From contig CAYGBC010000050.1 in assembly GCA_964348015.1 (NCBI GenBank), forward strand, positions 167,154 to 231,153: DNA of 64,000 bases. Reading direction: 5' to 3'. The notes beneath the pieces are model-generated. The model was not told the DNA's origin. It did no database searches and saw nothing but the letters and a program-made list of their open reading frames with translations. Positions within the stretch are counted from its first letter, which is position 1. The number at the start of each line of letters is the position of its first letter. A program made the position numbers and the translations under genes. This stretch comes from an uncultured Eubacteriales bacterium (GTDB lineage: Bacteria > Acidobacteriota > Aminicenantia > Aminicenantales > Aminicenantaceae). Of the stretch, positions 12,535-28,322 are shown in pieces.

Positions 12535-14557
12535 TCATCGTAAAGAATTCTAGGGCGTGCTGGAGCCAGGCCATCCAGTGAGAGATCCACTTGAAGGGAG
12601 CCAGTTTATCAGGTTTTCTCATCATGCTGTTGTTGGTGCGGTTGATATCCAGGACATACTTAAACTCCGGGTCCACTACGGCCTTTTTTATCCTCGAAGA
12701 TTTCAGGTATGTAAATCTTTCCCATCTGTACTGGCCGTTCCATGTTTCTTTGATTTCTTCTCCGTCTTCAAACACGACGAGAACATCCACAGGGAGTTTC
12801 ACTTCTCCCAAGCGGCGCACGATGACTTCCGAGTTGTAGCGTTCTTCTTTGATTCGTCGGTTTACGTACTCTCCATCAAACCATCCTTGCGGCTGTTTGA
12901 CTCTCTGGCTGGAGATTTTTCCTATCGCATAGTCGAGCTTTCCCGATCCGTATACAAATTGATCCAGAAACCAGCTCATTTCCCTGCCGGCGAACTCAGA
13001 AACGACTGCAAAGAAATCATCCGGACGAGGATGCTTGAACCAGTAGCGCTGTGAATACGTTTTAATCATTTCCGCAAATAGATCTTGCCCCATGAATCTT
13101 TTCAGGGTTCGCAGCATGAGAGAGGCCTTCGAGTAGGAATTGGCGCCGTAGCTTCCTCCTTCCAGGAATTCCCACGCGAAGCGCTGCATATCGTCCATGT
13201 CTGAGGTCTGGCGGTGGCGTGAGATTCCATCGGATTCGATCGGGATTCTGATGTTCTTGAACGTGACAGGAATCCCAAAAAAGGTTCGGTTGTAGACAGG
13301 CTCCCCATAGGCCGCGTAATAGACTTCCGTATCCAGAAAGGATGTGAATCCCTCATCCATCCAGGCATTCTCAAACTCGTTGGTGCCGACGAGGCCGTAG
13401 AAATAACCATGCCCGAACTCATGGATGGTCACTCCCTCAGGGCGTGGGATTCCTTTCCATGTGATGAAGTACGCGCCTCCGGTGAACAGCGTCGGATATT
13501 CCATCCCCCCTGAACGGCTGTTGTAGGCCGGGTCAACACATGTGGCTGTTGTGTAAGGATAATCACCGTAGAAGAGGCTGCAGTATTTGATAGCGTTTTT
13601 CACGGCATTCATGTAGCGGTTCTTGAGCCATTTATGCTGGGGTTGAAGAAGCAGTGTGATCTCAGTCGTCTTTCCCGGAGCAAACTCGTAATTTTCTCGA
13701 GTTTCGAGGAATCGAGGGCTGGCTGTCCAGGTAAAATCATGCACACTGTGTTGGTGAAAGCGATGAGTTGTGGTCCCATCATTATGCTCTGTTTTTTCCC
13801 TGTGCTCCCCAGTGGCGCCGATAACAAAAGAGGAGGGGAGGGTGATGCGGACATCGTAGGTTCCGTAATCGGCATAATACTCGCTCGCGGAATGGTACTG
13901 GTGGCAGTTCCATCGACCGTTCTCAAAAACGCCGATCTTCGGAAACCATTGTGCGATGAAATAATAATCCCTGTATACTCCGGTTCGAGAAATGGGACGG
14001 GGGATTTTGGATTCGAACTCGATCCTTAGCTGGATTGTCTGACCGGGCCTGACAGCACGCGGAAGTGAGACTGAAAAAACAGTCTGGTCGAAAAGATTCC
14101 CGTTGTCCGGATGCCGAAACTCCATGAACGGCATCAGGTCGGATTCTTCGAATAAAGAGTTGGCCATGATCTTGATCGTCTCCACCCGGCAGTGTCCCCA
14201 GTCTTCATCCTTGAAACCAGAGATTCTTCGGCCTCTCCTTTCGGCCTCTGTGAGAAAAGTGCTCATGTTGTTCTGGAAGGCATTCCAGTAAAGATGGAAC
14301 CAGAGTTCGTTCGTCGGTGAGGATGTGTCGTTCGTCCAGGTGAGGATTTCTGTGGCCTTTATTGTTTTATTTTCTGTATCCAGCCTCACGTCCATCGTGT
14401 AATTGGCAATCTGTTTGCAGAAGGTTTCTTGAGAGAATACCATGGGTGGAGAAAAAATGAGGATTATCAATATACATGATAAGAGATATGTCTTAAACAA
14501 AATGTCCTCCTTTTGGCATGATTTTTCCATATTATTAAAGATGTCTTTTTTTCGCAA
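12524..14557 (-). CDS. M1 family metallopeptidase (aminopeptidase N-like gluzincin), secreted
   Basis: 677 aa. HEFGHGYFYGLVGTNEFENAWMDEGF fits the HExxH-x18-E zinc site. A signal peptide lies at residues about 22-42; the start may instead be the internal Met at 14530. Confidence 0.85.
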   Translation of the reverse strand: MRKKDIFNNMEKSCQKEDILFKTYLLSCILIILIFSPPMVFSQETFCKQIANYTMDVRLDTENKTIKATEILTWTNDTSSPTNELWFHLYWNAFQNNMSTFLTEAERRGRRISGFKDEDWGHCRVETIKIMANSLFEESDLMPFMEFRHPDNGNLFDQTVFSVSLPRAVRPGQTIQLRIEFESKIPRPISRTGVYRDYYFIAQWFPKIGVFENGRWNCHQYHSASEYYADYGTYDVRITLPSSFVIGATGEHREKTEHNDGTTTHRFHQHSVHDFTWTASPRFLETRENYEFAPGKTTEITLLLQPQHKWLKNRYMNAVKNAIKYCSLFYGDYPYTTATCVDPAYNSRSGGMEYPTLFTGGAYFITWKGIPRPEGVTIHEFGHGYFYGLVGTNEFENAWMDEGFTSFLDTEVYYAAYGEPVYNRTFFGIPVTFKNIRIPIESDGISRHRQTSDMDDMQRFAWEFLEGGSYGANSYSKASLMLRTLKRFMGQDLFAEMIKTYSQRYWFKHPRPDDFFAVVSEFAGREMSWFLDQFVYGSGKLDYAIGKISSQRVKQPQGWFDGEYVNRRIKEERYNSEVIVRRLGEVKLPVDVLVVFEDGEEIKETWNGQYRWERFTYLKSSRIKKAVVDPEFKYVLDINRTNNSMMRKPDKLAPFKWISHWMAWLQHALEFFTMIGG

Positions 14558-14717
14558 TACATATTCGGAAAATTAATCCTAAAATATCGGTCTCATCTCT
14601 AAATCCTAGGGTCCATTTTGCATGTCCGGCTTTTTTTAATAGAGAAACCATGATAAAGTTAATTTCTAGAAAAATGGGATTGTGTTTTGATTCCTCAAGA
14701 TAAAGAGGAGGTTGAAA

Positions 14718-16775
14718 ATGAAGAGGATGAGAACAGTCTTTAGCCTTATGATCATCGCGATTCTGGTTTCCTCAACAGCAATGGCAGAGAATTCTCTTGC
14801 CTCAAAAAAGCTTGTGCAGGCCTTGGTCGATGAAGTCTCCGGAGAAATCGCTTTCAAGTACACTGTCCTGATTTCCCATTTTGACCGCATTCAAGCTTCA
14901 GAAGGCTGGCGTGATTCCGCTCTTTGGATCAAAGCAGAACTGGAGAAGATCGGGTACACAGATGTGGTCCTTGAAGGATGGCCTTCAAACGGCTCCACGC
15001 GTTATTACACGTATACCGCTCCTATCGGCTGGAAGGCTCGCCATGCCGAATTGTGGATGATCTCGCCACGAAGAGAAAGACTGTGCTCTTTCGAGGAGAT
15101 ACCTCTGACACTCGTCAAGCACAGCAATTCGGCCGATGTCGAGGCAGAGCTGATCGATGTGGGGACAGGAGTCGGGGAGGAGTCCTATCAGGGCAAAAAC
15201 GTGAGGGGAAAGATCGTTCTGGCCACAGCCTACACAGGAACGGTCATGAGGGAGGCTGTAATCAAGAGAGGCGCATTGGGTGTGGTCACATGGTATCCAC
15301 CTGAAGTGAGGCCCGGTTACCCTAACATGATTCGTTATACAGCCATCTGGCCACGCTGGGAAGAGCGGGAGAAGATTGGATTTGGTTTCAATGTCAGTAA
15401 GAATCAGGGCTGGCGGCTGAAAAAAATGCTGGATGAAGGAAAGACAGTTGTCCTCAAGGCAGATGTCGATGCGAAGTACTATGAATCTCAGGTGGAAGTG
15501 CTTTCCGCGGCATTCCAAGGAACCACAGATCCGGAAAAGGAAGTGATGATTATCGGTCACCTCTGCCATCCACTGCCGAGTGCCAACGACAATGCCAGCG
15601 GAAGCGGAGGAATGTTGGAAATGGCCCGGGCGTTGAAAAAAATGGTGGACAAGGGACTGATCGATCCTCCAAAAAGAACTATCCGTTTTCTCTGGGTCCC
15701 AGAATTTGCGGGAACAGTCCCGTACATCAAGGCCCATCTGGAAAGGACTCGAAACACGCTGGCTGTGATCAACTGCGATATGATCGGAGAAGATCTTCAT
15801 CTTACAGGCGGAACGTTTAACGTCACCTGCACGCCTGATTCGGTCCCCAGCTATCTCAATGATGTTGTCGTCAACTTCACAAAGCTTGCCGAGAGGCTTC
15901 GGCTGAGAAGCATCAACGGGAGCAATCATCCCTTTGCGTATAGAGTCCGTCCGTTTGGAGGTGGGAGCGACCATTACATCTTCAACGACGGAGCTTTGAG
16001 GGTGCCCTCAGTGATGTTCGGACATGGAGACACTTTTCACCACACAACCCTGGACACGCCGGATAAGGTGGATTCATCAGAACTTCGCCGGGTGTGTTTT
16101 ATCGCCCTCGGCTCAACGTATTACATGGCAAGTGCTTCCAACAGGAAGGCCGAGGATATGGCTCGGTTGATTACAAGAAATGGTATATCCCGGATGTCAG
16201 AGGATTATTACGATGCTCTTTCTCAAATGTTCGAAGCCGATAAGGCTGGCGAACTTCACGAGAACTATAAGCAGATCCTGAATGTAGTCGAACATTCTCA
16301 TCAAAGAGAAACTCAGTCTATTCGCTCAACAAGTGTTTTTATCAAAGATGCACGAATGAAGAAGAGGATTGAACAATACGCGCAGAGCTTGAATCTTTTA
16401 AACGACAGCTTTAAAAAAGATGTGCACAGATATTATTCACAGAGATGTGGAGAGTTCGGGCTCGAACCGAAGCCGATAACATTGACCGCAGAAGAAAAAA
16501 GATTGAGGAAGATTACCCCGCTGCGTGCAGAGGATTTTGTCTGTCCTCTTCAGTCTGATTATGTCGAGGAAATGCTCGGCAAGGGAACTCTGGAACAAGT
16601 GAAACTCCGTGGATACACAGCTTACGAGGCGATCAATTTTGCTGACGGGAACAGGAGCATTTATGATATTGCACGGGCCGTGTCAGCAGAGTTTGGTCCC
16701 GTGGATATGAAAAAAATCGAAGATTTTTTTAAAATACTTGAAAAAGCCGGATTATTTAAGTTAAAGACCATGTGA
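14718..16775 (+). CDS. M28 family peptidase with a PA domain, secreted
   Basis: A GAGGAGG RBS sits 7 nt upstream of ATG 14718. Signal peptide MKRMRTVFSLMIIAILVSSTAMA. The M28 metal-binding region is IIGHLCHPLPSANDNASGSGGMLEMARAL. Confidence 0.8.
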   Translation: MKRMRTVFSLMIIAILVSSTAMAENSLASKKLVQALVDEVSGEIAFKYTVLISHFDRIQASEGWRDSALWIKAELEKIGYTDVVLEGWPSNGSTRYYTYTAPIGWKARHAELWMISPRRERLCSFEEIPLTLVKHSNSADVEAELIDVGTGVGEESYQGKNVRGKIVLATAYTGTVMREAVIKRGALGVVTWYPPEVRPGYPNMIRYTAIWPRWEEREKIGFGFNVSKNQGWRLKKMLDEGKTVVLKADVDAKYYESQVEVLSAAFQGTTDPEKEVMIIGHLCHPLPSANDNASGSGGMLEMARALKKMVDKGLIDPPKRTIRFLWVPEFAGTVPYIKAHLERTRNTLAVINCDMIGEDLHLTGGTFNVTCTPDSVPSYLNDVVVNFTKLAERLRLRSINGSNHPFAYRVRPFGGGSDHYIFNDGALRVPSVMFGHGDTFHHTTLDTPDKVDSSELRRVCFIALGSTYYMASASNRKAEDMARLITRNGISRMSEDYYDALSQMFEADKAGELHENYKQILNVVEHSHQRETQSIRSTSVFIKDARMKKRIEQYAQSLNLLNDSFKKDVHRYYSQRCGEFGLEPKPITLTAEEKRLRKITPLRAEDFVCPLQSDYVEEMLGKGTLEQVKLRGYTAYEAINFADGNRSIYDIARAVSAEFGPVDMKKIEDFFKILEKAGLFKLKTM

Positions 16776-16785
16776 GCGGAAAGTA

Positions 16786-17367
16786 ATGGACAAGTCCACA
16801 AAAAGGAAAGAGGGAACGAGAAATTTTTTTCAGGAGCTGGTCAGAAGCCGGAGGAGCATTCGGCGTTATCTGGATAAGCCTGTAGAGAGAGAAAAGATCC
16901 TGACTTGTATCGAAGCCGCTCGGCTGGCGCCCTCTGCGGATAATGTCCAACCCTGGAGATTTCTGATCATTGATGACCCAAAATTAAAAGCGCAGTATGC
17001 CAAAAAGGTCTTTTCAGGGATTTATTCTATTTCCAGTTTCGCAGAAAAAGCTCCGGTTTTGATTCTGATTCTGGCCAGGCTGGACATTATCGCCAACAGG
17101 ATCGGGAGACAGATCCAGAACATTCAGTTTTATCTACTCGACATCGGAATCGCGGGAGAACATATCGTTCTTCAGGCTCAAGCGCTCGGTCTGGGGACCT
17201 GCTGGATTGGCTGGTTCAACATCCGGAAAGCAAGAAAATTCCTGAAGATTCCCCGCAAATACAAGATCGTATCGATGCTGGCGATGGGCTATTCCGAGAA
17301 GAGACCCTCAAGAGAGAAAAAAAGGAAAAAAATCGAGGATATAGCCTGGTTCAACACCATAAAATAG
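16786..17367 (+). CDS. Nitroreductase family protein
   Basis: RSIRRY..., ARLAPSADNVQPWRFLII and GTCWIG are typical of NfsB/Frp-type nitroreductases. Confidence 0.8.
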   Translation: MDKSTKRKEGTRNFFQELVRSRRSIRRYLDKPVEREKILTCIEAARLAPSADNVQPWRFLIIDDPKLKAQYAKKVFSGIYSISSFAEKAPVLILILARLDIIANRIGRQIQNIQFYLLDIGIAGEHIVLQAQALGLGTCWIGWFNIRKARKFLKIPRKYKIVSMLAMGYSEKRPSREKKRKKIEDIAWFNTIK

Positions 17368-17374
17368 ATTGCAA

Positions 17375-18202
17375 TTAAATTTCTACCCTGAAGAGGCCTT
17401 TGAAAGAAAATCCGAAGATTATGGAGAGGGCAAAATAAACGATGATCCAGTGGATCCGCCACCCGGAAAGATTCATATGTTTGGAGGGATAGTTGATCTC
17501 CACTGAACTTACAGGCAGGTTTTCTGATATCGGGGGCTCTCCAGGATTAAACAACCCCGCGAAGAAGTTGCGGTGAATCTTTATCGGAGAGATTTTGCTG
17601 AGCGGTTTCAGGGCGACAGCGACTTTTTTCACGAATTCCTCTCCGTTGAGAATGAGTTTTAAATCGTGTATCCCTGCTTCTTTGGCCCGGAGTCGCCAGT
17701 TCACTTCGCTGCTCTCCTCGATCCTGAGTGGAGGAGTCTCGACTTCCAGCCCTGAGTTTGTTTTGATCATGATCTTTGCATCAAGGAGGCTCAGGTCCTT
17801 TTTTAGCTTAACCTTCAGGACAGCTTCCTGGCCGGATGCCAAAGACTGGTAACCGAACCACAGGTTCAACTGGATCAGAATCAGGACAAGAGGAATGATC
17901 ATCACCAAAAGAGGTTTTGCAGAGTATCCGATGTATTTCAGGTTGTAGCGCAGGATCTGACCTTGAGCCTTTAAAGATACAGTCAGATTGTCTTTGAACA
18001 GGCGGATTTCGAGAAGATGGGCTTTGATATTGTTTTTCACCTTCCGGATTCCTTCCTGATTGGATGTGAAACGAAACACAAAGAGCATCAAAAGAGCTGT
18101 CAGGAATGATACGAGAATCATCCCTATCCAGGGGCTCATGTTCCTGAAGGGGAAGAACAGAACTTCAAAGATCTTCCCGAAGAGAAAGTTGAACACCCAC
18201 AT
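17375..18202 (-). CDS. Membrane protein of unknown function (3-4 TM helices plus a soluble domain)
   Basis: 275 aa with hydrophobic N-terminal helices and a C-terminal TM. It lies 66 nt downstream of the ribbon-helix-helix (RHH) gene on the same strand. Confidence 0.45.
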   Translation of the reverse strand: MWVFNFLFGKIFEVLFFPFRNMSPWIGMILVSFLTALLMLFVFRFTSNQEGIRKVKNNIKAHLLEIRLFKDNLTVSLKAQGQILRYNLKYIGYSAKPLLVMIIPLVLILIQLNLWFGYQSLASGQEAVLKVKLKKDLSLLDAKIMIKTNSGLEVETPPLRIEESSEVNWRLRAKEAGIHDLKLILNGEEFVKKVAVALKPLSKISPIKIHRNFFAGLFNPGEPPISENLPVSSVEINYPSKHMNLSGWRIHWIIVYFALSIIFGFSFKGLFRVEI

Positions 18203-18268
18203 CCTATTTGTTGTCCTTATGTATCATGTGAATTTCAGGCCTTCAATGATATCTATGTATTGATGACT

Positions 18269-18460
18269 CTACGAGATGTAACCGAGTCCTTTAAGCTTTT
18301 TTTTGATCTCCTCTTCGGAATCGGATTCATCGAGCTTGGCGATTTCCTTCTCCAGACAGTGAGCGATGAACTCTTCGGGCGATGAATAGCCGGACATTTT
18401 GGCGTATTTTTTCACTTTGTCCATCAAATTTTTATCCAGTTTTATTTTAGCTTTTCCCAT
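18269..18460 (-). CDS. Small ribbon-helix-helix (CopG/Arc-like) protein, 63 aa
   Basis: KIKLDKNLMDKVKKYAKMSGYSSPEEFIAHCLEKEIAKL fits a beta-strand, helix, helix RHH pattern, followed by an acidic tail. It overlaps the stop of the upstream NPP gene by 14 nt. Confidence 0.4.
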   Translation of the reverse strand: MGKAKIKLDKNLMDKVKKYAKMSGYSSPEEFIAHCLEKEIAKLDESDSEEEIKKKLKGLGYIS

Positions 18461-20462
18461 TTTTGCCTTCCTTTAATGAGAATATTGATTTTCCGATCAT
18501 CTCTTCGGGCTTATCAATCCCGAAGACCTCAAGAATCGTTGGTGTCAGGTCATAAAGCGCCGGAGAATCGATGTTGATTTTCTGGTTCGTCACCAGAATT
18601 CCGGGAATCACCTCCGGAGCCATGCAGTGGTCACCACTCCATTTTTCAGTGTTGTCTTCAAGAATTTCCCGAGGAATTCTTCCCAACGGAGAAGACCAGG
18701 ACACGCGGTAGCCCAGATTGTAGCCGATAATGATATCCGGAGCTTTATCTTGATGAGCGCCCTGGTAGACATCCTGAGCGGCGAAGGCCCTCAAGACCGG
18801 GCGTTCTCCTGTTTGGGGGTCCCGGAAGCTCTCCAATTTCTGAATAATCTCTCGAATGAGGGCTTCTTTTTCCCTGCCTGGATTGACAATTCCTTCTCCT
18901 TCTCTCCCTTTTTGGTTGATGTAGAGTCCGTTCAGGCCGTATGCATACGCCTTTGTTTTGGACCAATCGGTGTTCATGAAAAGATCCTCTTGGCCCTGCC
19001 TCCATCTGTTGATCAAAGCGTGGTATCCGTTTTCGAGAAGCCAGGTGTTCGGGTTAAAGGACCGGCGATACGGCGAGAATCCATGATCAGACATGACGAT
19101 GAGCACTGTGTCCTTATCTGACTTATCCAAAGCCCTGGCCAGCATCCTGTCCGCTTCTCTGTAGATATTCTCGATCGTGGTTCCGAATTTTTTGGCTTCT
19201 TCGGGATCATATAGGGGATGATTTTTATCGATGTGGCGCCAGAACATATGCTGACGCTGATCAGTGCTGGAGACATAATAGAAAAGAAGACCGGAATCGA
19301 ATCTCTTCAGTTCATACTCGAACATCTCCAGCCTTTCAGAAAGGATGAAGTCATCCTGCTGGAGGAATTCGCCATCATCCAGGACATCGTTATCGAGAGC
19401 CTTCGTATCCGCGGGAAGTCCTTTGGTGAAAAACGGCCCGAATCTTTTTTCCAGCTCTTCTGAATAGGATTTCGGTGTGGAGATCGGAAGGGCGGCGGCT
19501 CTTGGGTCGATGTTGATCGGGGAGATATAGAGTTTAAAATCCGGGCGGACCTGCTTCAAATAGAACATACAGATGCCGCTCACACTCTGTGTGGGAATCA
19601 TGCGGAAATGGATCCTTTTCCAGTCGCTCCATTCGCCCTGTTGAAGTATAAATTCGTGATCCTGAATCACGATTTTGGCAACCGGATGGATCGGATCGAT
19701 ATACACCGTGAAATCGATCGATGTTTCCGTCCGGTCGGCCTTGAAAGTGTTGGTCGGTCCGGGAAGTGAAGCCTCGATTTTATTCTCCTCGACATAGACT
19801 TCGTGGATTTCTCCTCCCCCGATGTCTTCTTTGAGTTCTGTGAATTCAGTCGTGTAATAGTTGAAGTGGTTCAGGCTCCCGACAAGGTCTGGAGTTCCCA
19901 TCCCGGATAACGTTCTCTGTTTGGTGGGGGCTGGAGGATAGTTTCCCGGCATCTTGAACACGGTGGAGGGGATATCGTGGTCTTCCAGAATCTGCCAGAA
20001 CGCCCTTCCTTTTCGAGAGAGTTCGACCTCACCTTCTGAGAGAGGAAGAACCAAATTCCCTATTCGGATTGTCTTTCCAGGCTCTCTGATTTCGGCCCCT
20101 GAAAACTCAGGCATATACACTTCAGGGTCTCTGTGGATAAAGTCGAAGATACCGTGTCCTCCGGGATTCATCCCTGTGATGAAATTCGACCAGGCCACTG
20201 GACTCTGGGGCGGGAGGCTTGTCCTGAGTTGACGAAAATCTCCTCGATTCAACAGCTTTTGGAAAGAAGGGAGCTTTCCTTGCTTCATCCAGACCTGAAG
20301 GAGATGAGGGTCCATCCCGTCTAACCCGAGGACGAGCACCTTCTTCTGGGAATCTTTTTTTCCAGGCGTTCTCGTCATGAGATTGGAGCCGTTCCCCAAA
20401 GCCATGAGAGCCCCGGAAGAGAGGCTGAGTTTAAGAAAATCTCTTCGGCTTATATATTTCAT
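18447..20462 (-). CDS. Alkaline-phosphatase-superfamily protein, type I phosphodiesterase / nucleotide pyrophosphatase (NPP) family, TAT-exported
   Basis: 671 aa. The TAT motif is MKYISRRDFLKLSL. VLVLGLDGMD (metal-binding Asp) and LPPQSPVAWSNFITGMNPGGHGIFDF match the NPP nucleophile region TKTFPNHYSIVTG..HGI. The AP-superfamily DHG motif is VMSDHGF. Confidence 0.8.
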   Translation of the reverse strand: MKYISRRDFLKLSLSSGALMALGNGSNLMTRTPGKKDSQKKVLVLGLDGMDPHLLQVWMKQGKLPSFQKLLNRGDFRQLRTSLPPQSPVAWSNFITGMNPGGHGIFDFIHRDPEVYMPEFSGAEIREPGKTIRIGNLVLPLSEGEVELSRKGRAFWQILEDHDIPSTVFKMPGNYPPAPTKQRTLSGMGTPDLVGSLNHFNYYTTEFTELKEDIGGGEIHEVYVEENKIEASLPGPTNTFKADRTETSIDFTVYIDPIHPVAKIVIQDHEFILQQGEWSDWKRIHFRMIPTQSVSGICMFYLKQVRPDFKLYISPINIDPRAAALPISTPKSYSEELEKRFGPFFTKGLPADTKALDNDVLDDGEFLQQDDFILSERLEMFEYELKRFDSGLLFYYVSSTDQRQHMFWRHIDKNHPLYDPEEAKKFGTTIENIYREADRMLARALDKSDKDTVLIVMSDHGFSPYRRSFNPNTWLLENGYHALINRWRQGQEDLFMNTDWSKTKAYAYGLNGLYINQKGREGEGIVNPGREKEALIREIIQKLESFRDPQTGERPVLRAFAAQDVYQGAHQDKAPDIIIGYNLGYRVSWSSPLGRIPREILEDNTEKWSGDHCMAPEVIPGILVTNQKINIDSPALYDLTPTILEVFGIDKPEEMIGKSIFSLKEGKNGKS

Positions 20463-20473
20463 TCGTGTTTCCC

Positions 20474-22612
20474 CTATTTATCTTTCTTGTTTGAGGGATC
20501 GTCCTGCACGGAGATCAGTGAACGCCCATCCATGTGAGACGGAACTTCGAGCCCGAAAAGTTCGAGTGCGGTCGGCGCGATGTCCATAATGGACGGCGAG
20601 CCTGTGTTGATTTTACGGGTGCAAAAGAATATCCCCGGAACGATCCTGGGGTCGATGCAGTGGTCTCCACTCCAGGCCTTTGTGTTATCCTCGAAGACGG
20701 TCTCGTTCACTTTTCCTGTGACCGAATCCCAGGAAACTCTGTATCCCTGGTTATACCCGACGAGGAGGTCAGGACAGTTCTCCTTATAAGGGCCTGGAGG
20801 GAGCTCATCGCGGTCGAAGATCTCGTTGATGGCGACATCATTTTTTTCTCTGTCTGTCAAACCGTTGAGCTTTTCCTTTAACTCCTTTTTAAGCGCTCTG
20901 GAGTCCTCACTCGCATCGACAATCCCTCGGGCTTCTCTTCCCTTCTGGTTAATGTATATTCCGCCAAGACCCAGGGCATACACTCTTGTCCTTTCCCAGT
21001 CCACGTCTTTGAACCACTCTTCGCTTGTCTTTTTTCCTTTCTGGAGGGACAGGTAGCCGTTCCTGTAGAGCCAGGAATTCAGGTTCACTCCGCGCCTGAA
21101 GGATTTGAAGCCGTGGTCGGACATGATGATCAAGGCGGATTTGTTATCCAATCTCTGGAGGACTTTTCCGACAAGCTCGTCCATTTTTGAGTAAAGCTCC
21201 TCGATCACACGGGAGCTCATTCTGGGCTGACCGGCTTTCAAAGAGGGATGATGTGTGTCCAGATAACGCCAGAACATGTGCTGGATGCTGTCGGTGGTCT
21301 CGAAAACACAGGTGACTAGGCCCTTCCGAGTTTTGTCTATCGCATTGAAAAGCATGTCTTCCCATTCCTTGTGGTTGGAATAGGTCAACTCCAGGAAGGC
21401 CTCTTCACTGAGAGCCCCTTCATTCAGAGCCCAGGTGTCGTTGGCTTCTCCGAGAGTGACGTAGCTTCCCCTGAGCTTAGCCAAATAAACAGAATAGATA
21501 AAAGGATGCGAGATCGGAAGAGCCGGTTTTTCAGGATCGATATTCAGCGGTGTCATGTACATCTCGAAATGGGGATTGATTTGCGCGAGGTAAAAACGAG
21601 CGATCGCTTTAATTTTTACTCCCATCCCCGGACGGAATGTCAGTTTTATCCAATCGGAGAAAGTGTTCGTCTGGAGACGGAATCTTTGACCGGATACTTC
21701 CAGAAGAGCGCTGGCACGCTCTTCGTTAATGGTGATTTTCAGCGGGAGCCGGAGCTCTTCTTCTTTCTTGAGCAGACTGTTTTCCGGTCCGGAGATGTAG
21801 GTCTCAATCTTCCCGTCAGTGATGTGGACGGGAATGTTCATTCCCCCCTCCCGTTTTTGAATCTTTTTGTTGTCTGATGTGTAGAAAAAGAAAGTCCCCT
21901 GGCTGCCTTTCAAGTCCGGGGCGCACATGCCGGAGAGAAGATGGCCGGAGAATTTTTCAGGAGGGAAGGTAATAGGGACTCTGAGTATCGTGCTGAAGAT
22001 GCCTTCTTTTCCCAGAATTTTCCAGAAAGGGACGCTCTTGCGCAGTCCTTTAATCTCAGGTTTGGACAGAGGAACATTGTATTTCCCGAGTGACAGGAAC
22101 TTCTTGGACTTTCCGATTCGCGCAGAGGAGAGGTCTGGAAGATAGGTTCTGGGATCCCTGCTGAGAAAGTCAAAGATGTTGTGTTTGGCGGGGTGCGAGC
22201 CGGTCATGAACGAAGACCAGGCGACAGGGGATATGGCTGGAGTAGTTGTCTGGAGCCTGGCATAAGCTCCTGATTTTTTGATTTTTAAAAAATTGGGGAG
22301 CTTTCCTTCGGACAAATATTTTTCCACAAGAGTGGGTTCCATCCCGTCCAGGCCGATGATGATGAGTTTGTTGATCAGGCTTTTCTTGTAGGCTTTCTGT
22401 CCCTTGATTATCCTGAAGAGGAGCCGAAAAGGCCATGTCAAAAAAGAAAAAAAGGCCAGGAGAAGAGTCAAAAAGAGGACCAGAAAAGAGGAGAGGAAAG
22501 CAAAACCGGCTCCAGGTCCGATATACGCCTGGAGAGGAAGAGAAGAAACCAGTAGGAGCAGAAAAAGAAAACAGGCTCTTCTGACATTTCTTATGTTTTT
22601 CAATGTCGTCAT
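20474..22612 (-). CDS. NPP-family alkaline-phosphatase-superfamily paralogue, membrane-anchored
   Basis: 712 aa. The N-terminal hydrophobic region spans about 60 aa. IIIGLDGMEP, TTPAISPVAWSSFMTGSHPAKHNIFDF and IMSDHGF are present. It is about 55% identical to the downstream paralogue over the N-terminal domain. Confidence 0.8.
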   Translation of the reverse strand: MTTLKNIRNVRRACFLFLLLLVSSLPLQAYIGPGAGFAFLSSFLVLFLTLLLAFFSFLTWPFRLLFRIIKGQKAYKKSLINKLIIIGLDGMEPTLVEKYLSEGKLPNFLKIKKSGAYARLQTTTPAISPVAWSSFMTGSHPAKHNIFDFLSRDPRTYLPDLSSARIGKSKKFLSLGKYNVPLSKPEIKGLRKSVPFWKILGKEGIFSTILRVPITFPPEKFSGHLLSGMCAPDLKGSQGTFFFYTSDNKKIQKREGGMNIPVHITDGKIETYISGPENSLLKKEEELRLPLKITINEERASALLEVSGQRFRLQTNTFSDWIKLTFRPGMGVKIKAIARFYLAQINPHFEMYMTPLNIDPEKPALPISHPFIYSVYLAKLRGSYVTLGEANDTWALNEGALSEEAFLELTYSNHKEWEDMLFNAIDKTRKGLVTCVFETTDSIQHMFWRYLDTHHPSLKAGQPRMSSRVIEELYSKMDELVGKVLQRLDNKSALIIMSDHGFKSFRRGVNLNSWLYRNGYLSLQKGKKTSEEWFKDVDWERTRVYALGLGGIYINQKGREARGIVDASEDSRALKKELKEKLNGLTDREKNDVAINEIFDRDELPPGPYKENCPDLLVGYNQGYRVSWDSVTGKVNETVFEDNTKAWSGDHCIDPRIVPGIFFCTRKINTGSPSIMDIAPTALELFGLEVPSHMDGRSLISVQDDPSNKKDK

Positions 22613-23904
22613 GAATAGTTTTCCAGAATTATCTTTTCTAAATCAGAGATCGTGAGGTCTTGTCCGTATTCTTTGGCAGACCAGAAAAAAGCATCATCCC
22701 AGGTGTGCATGCCTTGAAGGTTGGAACGGCCAAAAACCTCTTTTTTCTTCACCGAGCCTTTCATGTCAAACCCATATTCCGAGAGCACGATCAAGTCTGG
22801 ACCCTCGGATACAAACGGACCGGAATAAATTTCTTCGGTATCAAAGACATGTCTAACGACCTGTTTCCCATCGAATTCCAGGGCTTCCAGTTTCTTTTGC
22901 AGCTCATTTTTTAAAGAATTTTTTTCTGATGGCTCGACACTTCCCCGCAGGAATTTCCCTTTCAAGTTCAGGTAGATCCTGTTCGGGTCCATGGCAAAAG
23001 CGCGGGTGGAAGGTGTGATCTCGGAAAGACTCTCGGGCGAGGAGGTCGTGAAGCTCAAATACCCTTGTTTCTCCATCCAGGCATTGAGGTAAACTTCCTG
23101 ATCAATCCCTGTGAAACCGTGGTCTGAGAGGATATAGAGCGGACTGTCTTCGCTTTTGATTTTTTCATAGGACTCCACAATCATACTGATCAATTGATCG
23201 ATCCTCCGGTAGTAGTCGTAAAACTTGGGATGATCCGCATGGTTTTCATCTTCATAAGCATCCCAAAGGAAATGGTGGAGTCTGTCGGTGCCGGTCACGA
23301 CGAATTCAAAATAATCCCAATCTTCTTTGATGAAGTATTCCAGCGCATTCTGACGGGCCTCCAGAGTTCTCGTAAGCTCCTGCCAGAGGAATTCAGAATC
23401 TTCCCGGGACTTCATCGTGTCAATGTCTATCCGATAGCCCATTTTGTCCAGCAAGGCCTTGATATTCAGAGGATAAACGGCCTTGGAAAGCTCAATGGCC
23501 ACAAATCCAGAGATCAGGATTCCGTTGATCTTCCGAGCCGGGTAGGTGGAGGGTTGATTGATGATGATGCATTTCTTGTTGAGTTTTCCGAGTTTATCCC
23601 AGAAAGTGTCTTGTTTGAGATCAAGAAAATTCGGGAAGCGGAGCGCATAAGTGTCCTTTTGTATATCTGTAAATCCAAAAATGCCATGCACGCCAGGATT
23701 GGCTCCGGTCATGAAATTTGTCCAGCTGACAGATGAAATTTCGGGGAGGCTGGCTTTCATTTTATGAAGGTGGCCGGATCCGATGAGTTTCGACATCGCA
23801 GGCATGACTTCCTTTTGTGTTAGGTCGTGAAGGAGAGAGTGGGGGACGCCGTCCAGCCCGATAACCAGGACTTTCTTCTTCTTTTTTTTCTTAAACAAAG
23901 CCAT
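22609..23904 (-). CDS. NPP-family alkaline-phosphatase-superfamily paralogue, cytoplasmic (no signal peptide)
   Basis: 431 aa. The N-terminus is MALFKKKKKKKVLVIGLDG. LPEISSVSWTNFMTGANPGVHGIFGF and ILSDHGF are present. Its stop overlaps the next gene's start by 4 nt. Confidence 0.75.
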   Translation of the reverse strand: MALFKKKKKKKVLVIGLDGVPHSLLHDLTQKEVMPAMSKLIGSGHLHKMKASLPEISSVSWTNFMTGANPGVHGIFGFTDIQKDTYALRFPNFLDLKQDTFWDKLGKLNKKCIIINQPSTYPARKINGILISGFVAIELSKAVYPLNIKALLDKMGYRIDIDTMKSREDSEFLWQELTRTLEARQNALEYFIKEDWDYFEFVVTGTDRLHHFLWDAYEDENHADHPKFYDYYRRIDQLISMIVESYEKIKSEDSPLYILSDHGFTGIDQEVYLNAWMEKQGYLSFTTSSPESLSEITPSTRAFAMDPNRIYLNLKGKFLRGSVEPSEKNSLKNELQKKLEALEFDGKQVVRHVFDTEEIYSGPFVSEGPDLIVLSEYGFDMKGSVKKKEVFGRSNLQGMHTWDDAFFWSAKEYGQDLTISDLEKIILENYS

Positions 23905-24000
23905 GAAGCCAATTATTATAGCACTGATGGGGATTTCTCTCCAGACATGAGTACATTACATTCAATAAGTATCTTTATTTAAAGGATATTCTATTTAATA

Positions 24001-24134
24001 AGTCAGGCAATCTGGTGAGGAAGCCATCCGGAGGCGAGCGGGCATGGTTCCTCGAAGAGGAGAGCGAGCCGAGGACTAAGTGGATTTTCCTCGCTGGGGA
24101 AAATCCACGGGCTGCCGAATTAGTTTGCCTGACT
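24001..24134. repeat. Intergenic short repeat, copy C, in reverse orientation, bounded by perfect 10-bp terminal inverted repeats
   Basis: agtcaggcaa (24001-24010) is the inverted complement of ttgcctgact (24125-24134). The core 24031-24075 is the reverse complement of the ctcgctctcctc..gaggaacc(g/a)tgcccgctc motif seen at 2529-2575 and 44983-45030. An internal perfect 11-bp hairpin gtggattttcc/ggaaaatccac lies at 24080-24108. Confidence 0.6.
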
Positions 24135-24225: not shown

Positions 24226-26373
24226 TTATTGCGGTTTTTCTGAGCCGAGGATTATCCGGGCATCGACAATAGCGCAGCCTTTTCCTTTTTCGTAGACGAT
24301 CAACGGATTAATATCCAGCTCTTGGATGTCTTCAAAATCCATGACGAGTTGGGAGAGCCTCTTCAAACAGTCCTCAACGGCCCCGGTGTCGTACGCCTTT
24401 TCACCCCGGAATCCCTTGAGGATCTTATGCGTTTTTGTCTGAGTGATCATCATGGTCGCCGTGAGTTCGCGGATAGGGGCCAATCTGAAAGTGACATCCT
24501 CGAGGGCCTCCACATAGATGCCTCCCATCCCGAACATCAGGATAGGCCCAAACTGAGGGTCTCTGTTCATGCCCAGGATGATTTCTTTTCCTTCAGCGGC
24601 CATTTCCTCGACAATCACGCCTCGAATTTCTGCATCCGGTTTCCTGGCGAGAACCTTCTTGAGGATGTCCTCGAAACCTCTCCGCACTTCGGTCTTATTC
24701 TTCAGGTTGAGCTTGACTCCTCCAAAATCAAATTTATGAAGGATATCGGGAGACGCGATTTTCAGGACGACAGGGAATCCTATTTTTTCGGCGGCCTCTA
24801 CAGCTTGTCGTTCATTTCCGGCCAGAATAGATTTGACTACAGGAAAATTATAGGCCTTGAGTATTTCGTAAGATTCCTGCTCGAGAAGAAATTGACGGCC
24901 TTCTTTTTTGACCGAATCCACGATTTTTTTAGCTCTGGATTTATTCACTTTGTATCTTTTGATTCCAGTCTGGGGGCGACGCTTCCACCAGGTGAATTTG
25001 GTCATCTCTGAGAGGGTTCTGGCAGCCGATTCAGGAAACCTGTAATCCGGGATCCCGTTTTCTTCCAGGATTTCGATTCCTTTAGAAACGTCATAAACGC
25101 CTAAAAAACAGCTTAAAACAGGTTTTTTAAACTCTCTGGAGACTTGAACGATTGTCTCGGCAATCTTCTCCACATCGGTGAAAGCCGTCGGCGTGAGGAT
25201 GACGATACAGGAATCAACGTTTTTATCGTTGAGGATTTCTCTCAGGGTTATCTCATATTCCTCATGCTGTGCATCGGCGATCAGGTCGATTGGGTTGTTC
25301 AAGCTGGCTGTCGGGGGTAGTATTTTTTTCAAAGTTTTCACTGTGCTGGGGCTGAAGGAAGCCATGTTCATTCCGTACCGGATGCAGGAATCAGTTGCCA
25401 GGATTCCAGGGCCCCCGGAGTTCGTCACGATAGCGACATTTCCGCCATTCGGCAGAGGCTGACTGGAGAACGCTTTGACATAGTCGAAAACTTCTTCCAG
25501 CGTTTCTCCCCTCAGGACACCACACTGATGGAATATGGCGTCATAAACCCTGTCCGAGCCCGCAAGAGATCCGGTGTGAGACGACGCAGCTCTGGCGCCG
25601 AGCAGAGTCCGTCCCGCTTTGAGTGCGATTATGGGTTTGGGGTGAGTCGAGCTGCTCGTGATTTCGCGAGCGATTCTCATGAATTCCCTCCCGTCAGCAA
25701 GATCTTCAAGATACATTAAGATGACATCTGTCTTCGGGTCGTTTTTCAAGTAATGGAGAAGGTCGTTTTCAGTGATGCCGGCTTTGTTTCCCATGCTGAT
25801 GAATTTCGAAAAGCCTATGTTAGACTCGATCGCATAATCCAGCACAGCCACACACAGGGCGCCGCTCTGAGACAGGAAAGCGATGGTTCCTTCTTTGGAC
25901 ATCTGCGTCCCGAATGTCGCGTTCATGGAGGTTACAGGATCGGTGTTGATGACGCCCAGACAGTTCGGGCCGAAAAGAGCCATGTCATATTTGGCTATGA
26001 TTTTTTTGACTTTTTCTTCCCGCTCTATCCCTTTTCCTCCGATCTCTTTGAATCCAGCGGTGATAACGATAGCCCCCTTTATGTTTTTCTTCCCGCATTC
26101 TTCAAGGACTTCCGAAACGAATTGGGGAGGAACGATGATCACAGCCAGGTCGACCACATCGGGAATCTCGATGACATTACGGTAGCACTTGATCCCGAGA
26201 ATCCCTTTAGCCTTGGGATTCACAGGATAGACGATTCCCTGGTACCGGCTGTCGATGATATTCGCCAGGAGAGAGTGGCCCACGCTTCCCGGCCGTCTCG
26301 AAGCGCCGATGACAGCGATAGACCGTGGATAAAAAACTGAATCGAGTTTTTCAGTGATATCTGAATTTTTCAT
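24226..26373 (-). CDS. Acetyl-CoA synthetase (ADP-forming), fused alpha-beta (NDP-forming acyl-CoA synthetase family)
   Basis: 715 aa. The N-terminal CoA-binding part is IAVIGASRRPGSVGHSLL...YPVNPKA. The succinyl-CoA-synthetase-like ligase domain contains the phospho-His loop SHTGSLAGS. The C-terminal ATP-grasp domain is FPVVLKIASPDILHKFDFGGVKLNL. Confidence 0.85.
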   Translation of the reverse strand: MKNSDITEKLDSVFYPRSIAVIGASRRPGSVGHSLLANIIDSRYQGIVYPVNPKAKGILGIKCYRNVIEIPDVVDLAVIIVPPQFVSEVLEECGKKNIKGAIVITAGFKEIGGKGIEREEKVKKIIAKYDMALFGPNCLGVINTDPVTSMNATFGTQMSKEGTIAFLSQSGALCVAVLDYAIESNIGFSKFISMGNKAGITENDLLHYLKNDPKTDVILMYLEDLADGREFMRIAREITSSSTHPKPIIALKAGRTLLGARAASSHTGSLAGSDRVYDAIFHQCGVLRGETLEEVFDYVKAFSSQPLPNGGNVAIVTNSGGPGILATDSCIRYGMNMASFSPSTVKTLKKILPPTASLNNPIDLIADAQHEEYEITLREILNDKNVDSCIVILTPTAFTDVEKIAETIVQVSREFKKPVLSCFLGVYDVSKGIEILEENGIPDYRFPESAARTLSEMTKFTWWKRRPQTGIKRYKVNKSRAKKIVDSVKKEGRQFLLEQESYEILKAYNFPVVKSILAGNERQAVEAAEKIGFPVVLKIASPDILHKFDFGGVKLNLKNKTEVRRGFEDILKKVLARKPDAEIRGVIVEEMAAEGKEIILGMNRDPQFGPILMFGMGGIYVEALEDVTFRLAPIRELTATMMITQTKTHKILKGFRGEKAYDTGAVEDCLKRLSQLVMDFEDIQELDINPLIVYEKGKGCAIVDARIILGSEKPQ

Positions 26374-26431
26374 GGCCTTATGTCCTCAGCATATCATTTG
26401 AAGATTGAGCTGGATACGGTCATTTGCGAAT

Positions 26432-27115
26432 TCAGCCATCCAATGTTTTGAGAACGTGCTCGAGGAATGTTTCTTCCGGAACGGCTCCTTCTATAGAGAT
26501 TTTATCGTTGATGACTGTTTTGGGAACTCCGAAGACATGGTGTTTCTGGGCAAGATGCGGGAATTCGGTCGTCTCCACCATGTCGGCCTTGATCCGGGAA
26601 GATTCGATGGCGAACTGATGACCCAAACGCACGGCCGTTGTGCAATAGGGACACGTCGGGGTCACAAAGACCTGGATGTGGATATCCTGATTAATGTCTT
26701 TGATCGCCTCTTTTGTTTTTGGACTCAAGCCTGTCTTCTCCTTGGAGACATCAAGAATGGCTTCGATAAGACTGGTGTATTCATATCCTGAGGGGATTCC
26801 GAAAAACCGGATTCCATAGTCTTTTTTTCCCAGAATCACCGTGGCTGGGATTTTATCTATCCCGAATTCCTCTGCTTTTTCTTTATCGGCGACAAAATCA
26901 TAGACCGTGAGTTCGATTTTGTCAGAAAGCGAGCTGACTTCTGTGGCCAGCTCTTTGGCTTCTTTACAGAAAAGGCATTCCTGCCCTTTGATGTGGTCAG
27001 GGAGGACCAGTCGACTCGGCTCCTGAGTGAAGAAGAGAAGCTTAACCGTGCCTTCCAATTCTTCTCCGAATTTTTTTTGAGTGGCGTCTTTAACTTCTTT
27101 GTTGAGTATATCCAT
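26432..27115 (-). CDS. Thioredoxin-fold protein disulfide oxidoreductase (glutaredoxin-like, two CxxC motifs)
   Basis: 227 aa with CLFC and CPYC motifs in two thioredoxin-like halves (PDO-like). It lies immediately upstream of the acetyl-CoA synthetase on the same strand. Confidence 0.65.
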   Translation of the reverse strand: MDILNKEVKDATQKKFGEELEGTVKLLFFTQEPSRLVLPDHIKGQECLFCKEAKELATEVSSLSDKIELTVYDFVADKEKAEEFGIDKIPATVILGKKDYGIRFFGIPSGYEYTSLIEAILDVSKEKTGLSPKTKEAIKDINQDIHIQVFVTPTCPYCTTAVRLGHQFAIESSRIKADMVETTEFPHLAQKHHVFGVPKTVINDKISIEGAVPEETFLEHVLKTLDG

Positions 27116-27314
27116 ATTTTATTTTCCTCTCTTGGTTTTTGACATTTTAATTCTGAATTGATGAAAAATCAACATCTTCAACGGCGCTTCAGGATTGTCC
27201 AAAATAAATCTCGACACAACAGAACAAAATTCATGCAGATCATGAAAGATATTTCGCGGATTGGAGAGAAGGTGTTATAATAAAACACATGATTGGGATA
27301 AAGGAGAAAAAAAG

Positions 27315-28322
27315 GTGAAAAGAGAAAAAAATCAGACGTTGAATCGGCGTGAATTCATTAAAGGATCAATGGTGGGCTTAGTCGCGCTGCCTGCTTGGAG
27401 ATACAGCCCTTTGCTTGCAGGGAAAAAAAGGAAAAAGGCTAAAGTGGCTCTGATCAGGACCTCGAGTCGTGAAGAAGGAGTCCGTGAGGCGCTCAAGATT
27501 GTGGATTTCCCTAAAATAAAGGGCAAGGAAGTTTTAGTGAAGCCGAACTTCAATACAGCTGACCCCACACCTGGTTCCACACATAACGATACGTTGACCA
27601 GCCTCATCAAAGATTTAAGACAGCGGGGTGCAGCGGGTTTCACAATCGGCGAGAGGAGCGGGCCGCCAAAGACTCAAAGCGTTTTGGAGCAAAAGGGTAT
27701 TTTGCAGCTTGCCCAGAACCTGGACTTTAAAATAATCAATTTCGAAGAGTTAGAAGAGAAAGACTGGGTTCATTTCAATCCCGCTGGCAATCACTGGAAG
27801 AATGGATTTTCCATACCTCGGCCTGTCGTTGATGCTGAGTATGTGGTTTCCACATGCTGTTTGAAGACCCATGGTTTCGGTGGAATTTTTACGCTGTCCT
27901 TGAAATTGGCCGTGGGATTGACACCTAAGAATTTAATGCGGGAACTCCACAGCCAACGCACCGGTCCGATGAGAAAGATGATTGCGGAGATCAATCTTGG
28001 CTACACGCCTCAGTTGATCGTACTGGATGGAGTGGAAGCGTTTGTGGATGGTGGGCCTTCGAGAGGTGAAAAAAAAGAGGCCCATATCTTCCTGGCAGGG
28101 ACCGACCGTGTGGCGATAGATGCGGTCGGAGTGGCTGTTTTGAAAAAATTGGGTTCGAACGATGCCATAATGGGAACTCCGATATTCGAGCAGGAGCAGA
28201 TACAGAGAGCATCTGAATTGGGTCTGGGAGTGAACAGTCCTGATCAGATAGAAATTGTGGCTCCTGATCAAGCCAGCCGCGAATATGCACAAGAGTTGAA
28301 ATCCCTACTGGCTAAAGGATAA
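27315..28322 (+). CDS. DUF362 domain protein, TAT-exported
   Basis: AAGGAG sits 8 nt upstream of GTG 27315. The TAT signal is KREKNQTLNRREFIKGSMVGLVALPAW. VLVKPNFNTADP and LKTHGFGG...VLDG match DUF362 family signatures. The ORF-track start at 27261 is a likely over-extension. Confidence 0.6.
   Translation: MKREKNQTLNRREFIKGSMVGLVALPAWRYSPLLAGKKRKKAKVALIRTSSREEGVREALKIVDFPKIKGKEVLVKPNFNTADPTPGSTHNDTLTSLIKDLRQRGAAGFTIGERSGPPKTQSVLEQKGILQLAQNLDFKIINFEELEEKDWVHFNPAGNHWKNGFSIPRPVVDAEYVVSTCCLKTHGFGGIFTLSLKLAVGLTPKNLMRELHSQRTGPMRKMIAEINLGYTPQLIVLDGVEAFVDGGPSRGEKKEAHIFLAGTDRVAIDAVGVAVLKKLGSNDAIMGTPIFEQEQIQRASELGLGVNSPDQIEIVAPDQASREYAQELKSLLAKG

Follow-up and report, generated by a model that had tools for sequence, protein, structure and literature searches.

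What could hold three diverged paralogous enzymes, a small protein with a DNA-binding look, and a membrane protein together in one row of genes? Positions 17375-23904 of the 64-kb stretch of DNA analysed here (the window, in whose numbering coordinates and strands are given) raise this question. A first-pass annotation had proposed that the row is a dedicated three-compartment module for processing phosphodiesters or phosphonates. It comprises three genes (g1, g2, and g3) for enzymes of the nucleotide pyrophosphatase/phosphodiesterase (NPP) type, a gene for a ribbon-helix-helix (RHH)-like protein, and a gene for a membrane protein. We find that four of the five genes form a core that is syntenic in at least 10 phyla. 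That the five genes make up an operon encoding a conserved and hitherto uncharacterised envelope module, working by the mechanism set out below, is in our estimate about an even call. The module most likely acts on a membrane-associated phospho- or sulfo-ester substrate.

Gene layout and conservation

The listing of open reading frames (ORFs) gives five consecutive genes at 17375-23904, all on the minus strand, and agrees with the coordinates first reported for the enzyme genes. From upstream to downstream, g1 encodes a short NPP-type enzyme of 431 amino acids (aa) (22609..23904, matching PF01663 over its full length), g2 a long one of 712 aa (20474..22612, matching PF01663 in two stretches), and g3 a long one of 671 aa (18447..20462, PF01663). 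They are followed by the gene for the RHH-like protein, which has 63 aa, an acidic linker, and a borderline match to PF01402 (18269..18460), and by the gene for the membrane protein of 275 aa, defined by its ORF and a family profile (17375..18202). The ATGA stop/start overlap that had been described for the enzyme genes is present between g1 and g2, whereas g2 and g3 are separated by an 11-nucleotide (nt) spacer. As described before, the RHH-like ORF overlaps the end of g3, by 14 nt, and the membrane ORF follows 66 nt past the small one.

We examine 84 loci (L001-L084), 77 of them obtained by scanning species-representative genomes for the membrane protein; the five proteins are located by tblastn. 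The g2-type, g3-type, RHH-like, and membrane genes are adjacent and co-oriented in every adequately flanked locus. Close homologues belong to Candidatus Aminicenantes. A complete Aminicenantes genome and a JGI contig contain the same five-gene block (431, 709, 661, 63, and 275 aa) amid different flanking genes. The cluster is found in at least 10 phyla (Aminicenantes, Dadabacteria, Thermodesulfobacteriota, Terriglobia, Nitrospirota, Omnitrophota, Armatimonadota, Planctomycetota, Schekmanbacteria, and Fermentibacteria), and loci also come from other Acidobacteriota, Desulfobacteraceae, Phycisphaerales, Planctomycetia, Pirellulales, and Aegiribacteria. Synteny holds at 25-90% identity across phyla, and five further contexts with Pfam annotation agree with the core arrangement. 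The two small genes are in reverse order in Fermentibacteria/Aegiribacteria. The RHH-like gene is present in 78 of the 79 loci L001-L079, the exception being a contig that begins inside the membrane gene, and in four of the five later loci (L080-L084). Gene g1 lies upstream of the core only in Aminicenantes and Omnitrophota; in other lineages it is located elsewhere or missing from the flank. Since g1 is present only in some lineages, the conserved core consists of four genes.

The same gene order in all adequately flanked loci of at least 10 phyla indicates that the arrangement is due neither to recent duplication nor to chance adjacency. Comparative genomics thus supports the earlier view of a dedicated module rather than a simple duplication. 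Gene fusion was considered for the unusually long homologues P0241 (897 aa) and P0249 (921 aa) and rejected, since both are run-on gene calls that join a g2 fragment to g3. Although the components come from known superfamilies, the system itself has no description in the literature searched, which covered COG3379, DUF106, Aminicenantes alkaline phosphatases, and the alkaline-phosphatase superfamily in connection with 3'-phosphoadenosine 5'-phosphosulfate (PAPS).

Three divergent NPP-type enzymes

The enzymes match PF01663 (type I phosphodiesterase/NPP) with E values of 4.9e-38 (g1), 7.7e-34 (g2), and 4.5e-33 (g3), and the corresponding scores of 132, 118, and 116 bits are above the gathering threshold of 23. 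The Pfam search therefore upholds the assignment to the NPP/alkaline-phosphatase superfamily that had been made from shared motifs, and these motifs (GLDG, S-P-V-A-W..TG..H-x-I-F-x-F, and SDHGF) are all found. The paralogues are more distant than the 40-55% identity first estimated: g2 and g3 are 38% identical over 636 aa, and g1 is 27-31% identical to either. The extra length of the two long copies had been taken for a C-terminal domain of about 250 aa. It is instead an internal insertion of about 220 aa, because the PF01663 match is split in two and the model of g3 is all-beta from about aa 109 to 330 (19473..20138, minus strand). The g2 enzyme has an equivalent of this domain, which g1 largely lacks. 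The insertion contains invariant residues, including a NIDP..ALPIS.P motif.

Active-site residues are compared in two phylum-diverse alignments of the g2- and g3-types (A2 and A3), with g3 numbering. Ten residues are invariant among the 48 g2/g3-type sequences of A3: D48 in GLDG, S87 in Q-S-P-V-A-W, H103, D107, F108, D401 and H405 in TDxxxH, D459 and H460 in SDHG, and H612 in GDH. When profiles are searched against PDB sequences, D48, S87, and D459/H460 align with Asp54, the nucleophile Thr90, and Asp257/His258 of Xanthomonas NPP (Xac NPP; 2GSN), while D401/H405 and H612 are placed by motif, not by direct alignment to 2GSN. All three enzymes have equivalents of the two-metal ligand set (Asp54, Asp210/His214, Asp257/His258, and His363 of Xac NPP). 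The nucleophile position is occupied by Ser rather than Thr, as had been noticed at the outset; Thr is found at position 87 in one further g3-type orthologue (L074, alignment A2). The g1 orthologues (n = 43) conserve the Asp of GLDG, the Ser/Thr nucleophile (Thr in three of them), TDxxxH, and SDHG. Asn111 of NPP is aligned with the invariant F108 of the long forms, directly preceded by D107, and g1 orthologues have Gly-Phe instead of this Asp-Phe, with Gly in place of D107. Judged from these alignments, the window enzymes are a divergent NPP subfamily, in which the nucleophile is Ser and Asn111 is replaced.

The AlphaFold model of g3 has a mean predicted local distance difference test score (pLDDT) of 89.1 and a predicted template-modelling score (pTM) of 0.87. 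Its best Foldseek matches in the PDB are Xac NPP, ENPP1/5/6, PhnA, PafA, and SPAP (E 2e-10 to 1e-7), and the target-normalised TM-score is 0.55-0.63 for the single-domain NPP, PhnA, and ENPP5/6 chains. The identity of g3 to the fold-matched solved structures is only 10-12%, and PDB searches with the single sequences of g1 and g3 give no match, so that profiles are needed. Motifs and model together predict that the enzymes are catalytically competent and that the long forms carry the large beta insertion within an NPP-type domain.

Three more specific identities were tried and rejected. The PhnA model (TIGR02335) matches an N-terminal stretch only, with 27.7, 19.3, and 16.1 bits against a cut-off of 407. 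A formylglycine sulfatase (PF00884) is suggested by g2 alone, with 15.7 bits against 25, and there is no C/S-x-P-x-R signature, the nucleophile motif being S-P-V-A-W. PglZ gives no Pfam match at E <= 0.01 in any of the three enzymes. Scores of the window enzymes with phosphoglycerate-mutase models are far below the cut-offs. Every database name for the enzymes is generic, and none is a system name.

Predicted localization of the enzymes

The three enzymes had been assigned to three compartments. Differing localizations are retained in our analysis and can be worded more closely: g1 is predicted in the cytosol, g2 on the cytoplasmic face of the inner membrane, and g3 in the periplasm.

Gene g3 encodes a twin-arginine translocation (TAT) signal peptide at aa 1-28 (20379..20462, minus strand), with SRRDFLK at aa 5-11. 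The TAT signal reported before is supported by TIGR01409, which scores 20.0 bits against a cut-off of 16.7; the Pfam TAT_signal model, at 22.2 bits, is just under its cut-off of 22.7. The RR motif is present in 58 of 67 g3-type orthologues. The rest have Sec or lipobox signals, and an export signal is always present. The g3-type enzyme is thus probably exported, in the window by the TAT route and in other loci by Sec or as a lipoprotein.

The N-terminal membrane anchor that had been seen on g2 has a particular form, which bears on the side of the membrane that the enzyme faces. Residues 1-75 (22388..22612, minus strand) comprise a signal-peptide-like segment ending in LQA, an invariant YIGPGAG, one transmembrane helix, and a K/R-rich stretch. 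Y[IVL]GPGAG stands right after x-x-A, a small-x-Ala site, in 56 of 59 full-length g2 orthologues. The 20 aa past the transmembrane helix have a mean net charge of +7.1 and a minimum of +4 among the orthologues. By the positive-inside rule, the K/R-rich stretch after the helix predicts an N-out/C-in anchor, with the catalytic domain on the cytoplasmic side. The g2 orthologues of L063 and L074 are without the signal-peptide-like segment and would need translocation of a short N-tail.

The absence of a signal peptide from g1, also noted before, is confirmed. The N-terminus of g1 reads MALFKKKKKKKV, with a polybasic stretch in codons 5-11 (23872-23892) that is encoded by an A-rich tract. This polybasic N-terminus (M-x-[LI]-F followed by a K/R run) is kept in Aminicenantes g1 orthologues, and the g1-like genes of Terriglobia and Omnitrophota do not have it. 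Its role may be to associate g1 with the membrane.

A membrane protein related to DUF106

The membrane protein is compared with known structures by means of two family profiles, one shallow (A1) and one diverse (A6). Both give a single significant PDB match, the archaeal DUF106 protein and insertase homologue MJ0480/Ylp1 (5C8J), with E values of 2.3e-7 and 9.9e-8 over the first transmembrane helix (TM1), the coiled coil, and the second transmembrane helix (TM2). In a weak second aligned segment, the last transmembrane helix of the membrane protein is collinear with TM3 of MJ0480. The structural model (pLDDT 69) has helices at residues 24-46, 49-100, 102-117, and 250-266 and a beta domain at aa 126-237.

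Three parts can be distinguished on the minus strand. Residues 1-120 (17843..18202) form the DUF106/Ylp1-like part, assigned by the profile match to MJ0480 and the model helices and comprising TM1, a cytoplasmic coiled coil, and TM2. Residues 121-245 (17468..17842) form an immunoglobulin (Ig)/filamin-like beta domain, defined by the model beta strands and predicted to be periplasmic. Residues 246-275 with the stop codon (17375..17467) form the C-terminal transmembrane helix, which is modelled at 250-266 and weakly collinear with TM3 of MJ0480. For the beta domain, the fold matches are S-layer, filamin, and invasin Ig domains, all with E > 1e-3, and one orthologue has a weak Filamin match in Pfam. 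Pfam and NCBIfam scans of the window protein give nothing significant, and several orthologues are named "DUF106" by JGI and NCBI.

By its sequence profiles, the membrane protein is a remote homologue of archaeal DUF106/Ylp1, of the Oxa1 superfamily, with an Ig-like domain inserted in the TM2-TM3 loop. The coiled coil would be exposed to the cytoplasm and the Ig-like domain to the periplasm. The Oxa1 superfamily also includes EMC3, Get1, and TMCO1, of which MJ0480/Ylp1 is an ancestor-like relative, and an N-out anchor is a classic substrate of Oxa1-type proteins. An exhaustive profile search finds 2,696 clusters of the membrane-protein family at 50% identity, nearly all of about 275 aa. DUF106 has been described as archaeal and eukaryotic (PMC5868721; PMC8887752), and no paper on a bacterial DUF106 branch was found in the literature searched.

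The RHH-like protein and its C-terminal tail

The window copy of the RHH-like protein scores 20.2 bits with RHH_1 (PF01402), against a cut-off of 20.5, and 5 of 17 orthologues match at E <= 0.01, the best with E 2e-5. The RHH domains of NikR are the best natural matches of the profile in the PDB (E about 0.06), with a common GYSS turn. Orthologues of all phyla are 61-68 aa long. They have in common K-[IV]-K-[LI]-D...G-Y-S-S-x-E-E-F, then an acidic linker, and at the extreme C-terminus an invariant G-L-G-Y-[IL]-[SED]. As identified by alignment and a tail scan, the tail in the window is LKGLGYIS (18272..18295, minus strand). Its residues G58, L59, G60, and Y61 show no variation among 17 orthologues of diverse phyla.

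The tail is also found on proteins of other kinds. Among 5,589 six-frame ORFs of L001-L079, 85 end in L-x-x-[LIVM]-[GD]-Y-[ILVM]-x(0-2). They comprise 74 RHH-like proteins, the motif being terminal in 74 of the 78 RHH-like genes, and 11 other genes beside the cluster, including two for adenosine 5'-phosphosulfate (APS) kinases, one for a PAPS-reductase-domain protein, and several for PF00884 proteins. The APS kinases (CysC; L059:1633-2235 and L069:12576-13178) adjoin g1-type genes in Omnitrophota and Armatimonadota. They match PF01583 with E about 1e-60 and have a C-terminal extension of about 50 aa that ends in ...IKQRL[KR]xLGYI. A tail-bearing protein of 142 aa in Fermentibacteria/Aegiribacteria has LKDLGYL near its C-terminus (L077:10067-10492, minus strand; L079:9946-10374; L076:7981-8409). 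Its gene sits between the cluster and an ATP-sulfurylase gene in L077 and L079, and the contig ends just past the gene in L076. Of 87 long ORFs in the window, none matches a looser form of the motif at any position in the protein.

Since the same tail is present on neighbouring APS kinases, a PAPS-reductase-like protein, and LtaS-like transferases, the RHH-like protein would be a docking subunit rather than only a regulator. In our reading, the tail is a peptide for docking or membrane targeting, and the RHH-like protein would be a subunit or sensor, with DNA binding as a possible further property. The protein had been described as a built-in small regulator. The RHH_1 matches are in favour of that description. 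Against it are the borderline level of their scores, the sharing of the tail with neighbouring enzymes, and the outcome of an operator search in 35 loci: the 330 nt before g1 contain no conserved operator or palindrome, and the recurring k-mers there are promoter-like or upstream-coding only. Regulation would therefore be at best half of the role.

Neighbouring genes and alternative explanations

In a Pfam scan of 85 flanking proteins from non-Aminicenantes loci, the most recurrent families are PF00884 (8/85) and TPR (6/85), followed by ATP sulfurylase. Of about 28 non-Aminicenantes loci, 8 have genes for sulfate activation or PAPS use in their flanks, and these represent at least five phyla. 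In particular, L059 (Omnitrophota) has an ATP-sulfurylase fragment and an APS kinase on the operon strand, interleaved with g1-type genes, L069 (Armatimonadota) has Sat and CysC, L075 (Planctomycetota) has CysC, and L051 (Terriglobia) has a PAPS-reductase-like protein. Genes of this kind are absent from about 54 Aminicenantes loci and from the 64-kb window. The association is real but partial. On a 1.48-Mb metagenomic contig, a gene for a PAPS-type sulfotransferase (PF13469; L080:7797-8417, minus strand) lies divergently just upstream of the cluster.

The PF00884 neighbours (L054:7039-8931, L055:5113-7020, L055:7060-8955, L081:12573-14318, and others) end in ...LKALGYIQ and have about five N-terminal transmembrane helices. 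In Dadabacteria and Thermodesulfobacteriota, their genes separate the RHH-like gene from the membrane gene. True sulfatases were considered and rejected, as none has the C/SxPxR formylglycine signature; the proteins look like transferases of the LtaS/EptA type. Enzymes of that type act on membrane lipid head groups, which is the kind of chemistry proposed here for the cluster. A PAP2 lipid phosphatase (L084:15592-16605) and a family-2 glycosyltransferase (L060:9886-10842) are each encoded just downstream of the cluster in a single locus, and LPG_synthase_TM proteins match two flanking genes among the scanned loci. These neighbours are weak hints of a link to envelope lipids.

The sulfate-related neighbours suggest an explanation in terms of sulfur-ester metabolism, in which the enzymes work on activated sulfate or on sulfated molecules of the envelope, as APS/PAPS phosphodiesterases, Ser-nucleophile sulfatases, or sulfo-transferring enzymes, and PAPS is supplied locally by a docked, tail-bearing APS kinase. 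NPP enzymes do cleave nucleotide phosphosulfates, and the tail of the RHH-like protein recurs on the APS kinase, the PAPS-reductase-like protein, and the 142-aa Fermentibacteria protein. However, this explanation has to account for the Aminicenantes loci, the window included, that have no such gene. Neither the window enzymes, of which g2 has 15.7 bits against 25 for the Pfam Sulfatase model, nor the LtaS/EptA-like PF00884 neighbours have the C/SxPxR signature, and the basis of the link could be a docking hub in common and not a common chemistry. We consider this explanation unlikely.

Phosphate scavenging would make the enzymes three phosphodiesterases or phosphonatases in three compartments, with an RHH regulator and an incidental membrane protein, close to the phosphodiester- or phosphonate-processing role first proposed. 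Membership in PF01663 and the intact NPP-type metal site would suit such a role, as would TAT export (known for the secreted phosphatases PhoD and PhoX), the weak local similarity to PhnA, and the RHH_1 matches. However, the PhnA model gives 16-28 bits against a cut-off of 407, and no pst, phn, or pho family is among the most frequent flank Pfam families or the genes called in annotated contexts, and nothing in these results ties the module to scavenging. The sulfate-activation genes and LtaS-like transferases to which the cluster is linked in other phyla also speak against a simple scavenging of phosphate. A g2 enzyme predicted to face the cytoplasm makes little sense for it, the membrane and RHH-like proteins are conserved as much as the enzymes, and a pure regulator agrees poorly with a tail common to non-regulatory enzymes and with the missing operator. 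This explanation is, in our judgement, quite improbable. Finally, we give almost no credence to unlinked paralogues, duplicated, adjacent by happenstance, and uncoupled from the two small downstream genes, as the common fold and active site and the generic annotation might suggest, because the explanation is effectively refuted by the synteny (same order and strand in all adequately flanked loci, with flanks differing) and is also opposed by the tight or overlapping gene spacing and by the targeting device that each paralogue type keeps.

Upstream region and flanks in the window

A promoter-like site (TGGAGA, 17 nt, TG-n-TATAAT) is located directly upstream of g1 at 23915..23943 on the minus strand. 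It has 10 of 12 matches and an extended -10 element. The number of promoter-like sites in the region is not above shuffle expectation, and the site is only suggestive of a g1 promoter. In 35 Aminicenantes loci, 8-mers that resemble TATAAT and TTGACA are repeatedly found before g1.

Between the upstream acetyl-CoA synthetase-like gene and g1, there is a perfect 11-bp inverted repeat, GTGGATTTTCC-N7-GGAAAATCCAC, at 24080-24108 on the minus strand. It is not accompanied by a T-tract and has no counterpart in the 34 other Aminicenantes loci compared. The flanks at 12524-17367 and 24226-28322 contain apparently ordinary housekeeping genes, which match, by position and length, genes annotated as M1 peptidase, M28/DUF4910 peptidase, nitroreductase, ADP-forming acetyl-CoA synthetase-like, and thioredoxin-like. 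The order of these genes relative to the cluster varies among Aminicenantes genomes.

Proposed mechanism

We propose that g2 and g3 share one substrate, a membrane-associated and probably lipid-linked phospho- or sulfo-ester, and work on it from opposite faces of the inner membrane. The DUF106-like protein would be their membrane partner, which either inserts the N-out anchor of g2 or scaffolds the enzyme pair across the bilayer. Docked through its tail, the RHH-like protein would be a subunit or sensor, and repression of the operon may be a second function. Gene g1 would encode a lineage-specific cytosolic accessory enzyme.

A bolder version can be put forward tentatively, and we hold it to be doubtful as a whole. 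The four-gene core would be a new trans-membrane enzyme machine, in which the DUF106/Oxa1 protein is the hub, serving as an insertase or as a conduit for a lipid substrate. GLGY[IL]x would be a so far unrecognised docking code that brings the RHH-like subunit, APS kinase, and LtaS-like transferases to this hub, and an envelope lipid or glycan would be built or remodelled with phospho- or sulfo-esters.

Several observations weigh against the proposed mechanism. The predicted localizations rest on the positive-inside rule and on signal motifs. For the membrane protein, the gathering score of PF01956 (27.1) is not reached, the window copy having 9.7 bits and the orthologues at most 25.4, and PF01956 is matched at E <= 0.01 in 3 of 50 family representatives, none past the threshold. 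A fold search with the pLDDT-69 model gives only Ig/filamin-like matches, with E > 1e-3, and no structure of the Oxa1 superfamily, so the DUF106 relationship is drawn from sequence profiles. Bacteria already have YidC, which leaves the need for a dedicated insertase unexplained. Proteins with the tail motif are expected on either side of the membrane, a complication for docking to a single partner. In addition, RHH is a DNA-binding fold, and the RHH-like protein may be purely regulatory.

If the proposal is true, the cluster represents a widespread and unstudied envelope system in major uncultivated and environmental phyla, with a membrane component of about 2,700 clusters at 50% identity. A bacterial branch of the DUF106/Oxa1 superfamily would gain its first functional context, and a short C-terminal peptide would link an APS kinase, LtaS-like transferases, and the RHH-like protein, which are otherwise unrelated. 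The predicted pairing of paralogous enzymes on opposite membrane faces would be an unusual design.

Comparison with known systems

The RHH-like protein resembles RHH proteins such as CopG, Arc, MetJ, and the N-terminal part of NikR in its strand-helix-turn-helix pattern, and it has the G-Y-S-S turn of NikR. RHH antitoxins combine an RHH domain with a flexible C-terminal tail that binds a partner, and their architecture is similar. The window protein differs from RHH proteins and antitoxins in that no operator or toxin-like partner is found, and its tail is invariant across phyla and occurs on nearby metabolic enzymes.

The membrane protein and MJ0480/Ylp1 (5C8J) are alike in the collinear order of TM1, cytoplasmic coiled coil, TM2, and TM3. 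In contrast to archaeal DUF106, the window family is bacterial, has an Ig-like domain of about 125 aa in the TM2-TM3 loop, and stays below the PF01956 threshold. Its gene is embedded in an enzyme operon, unlike that of a general insertase, an insertase role being putative in any case.

Phosphotransferases of the LtaS/EptA/OpgB type (PF00884) belong to the same superfamily as the window enzymes, and such proteins neighbour the cluster elsewhere and carry the tail of the RHH-like protein. The window enzymes differ from them in belonging to PF01663 and in having soluble domains with a single anchor or signal peptide, predicted to form a cytoplasmic/periplasmic pair.

Most similar in the catalytic domain are NPP (2GSN; ENPP1-7) and PhnA, with which the window enzymes have the fold, the metal-ligand motifs, and the position of the nucleophile in common. 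Compared with these, Ser stands for Thr, Asn111 is replaced, and the long forms contain the all-beta insert of about 220 aa. The system as a whole differs from NPP and PhnA in its dedicated membrane and small-protein partners.

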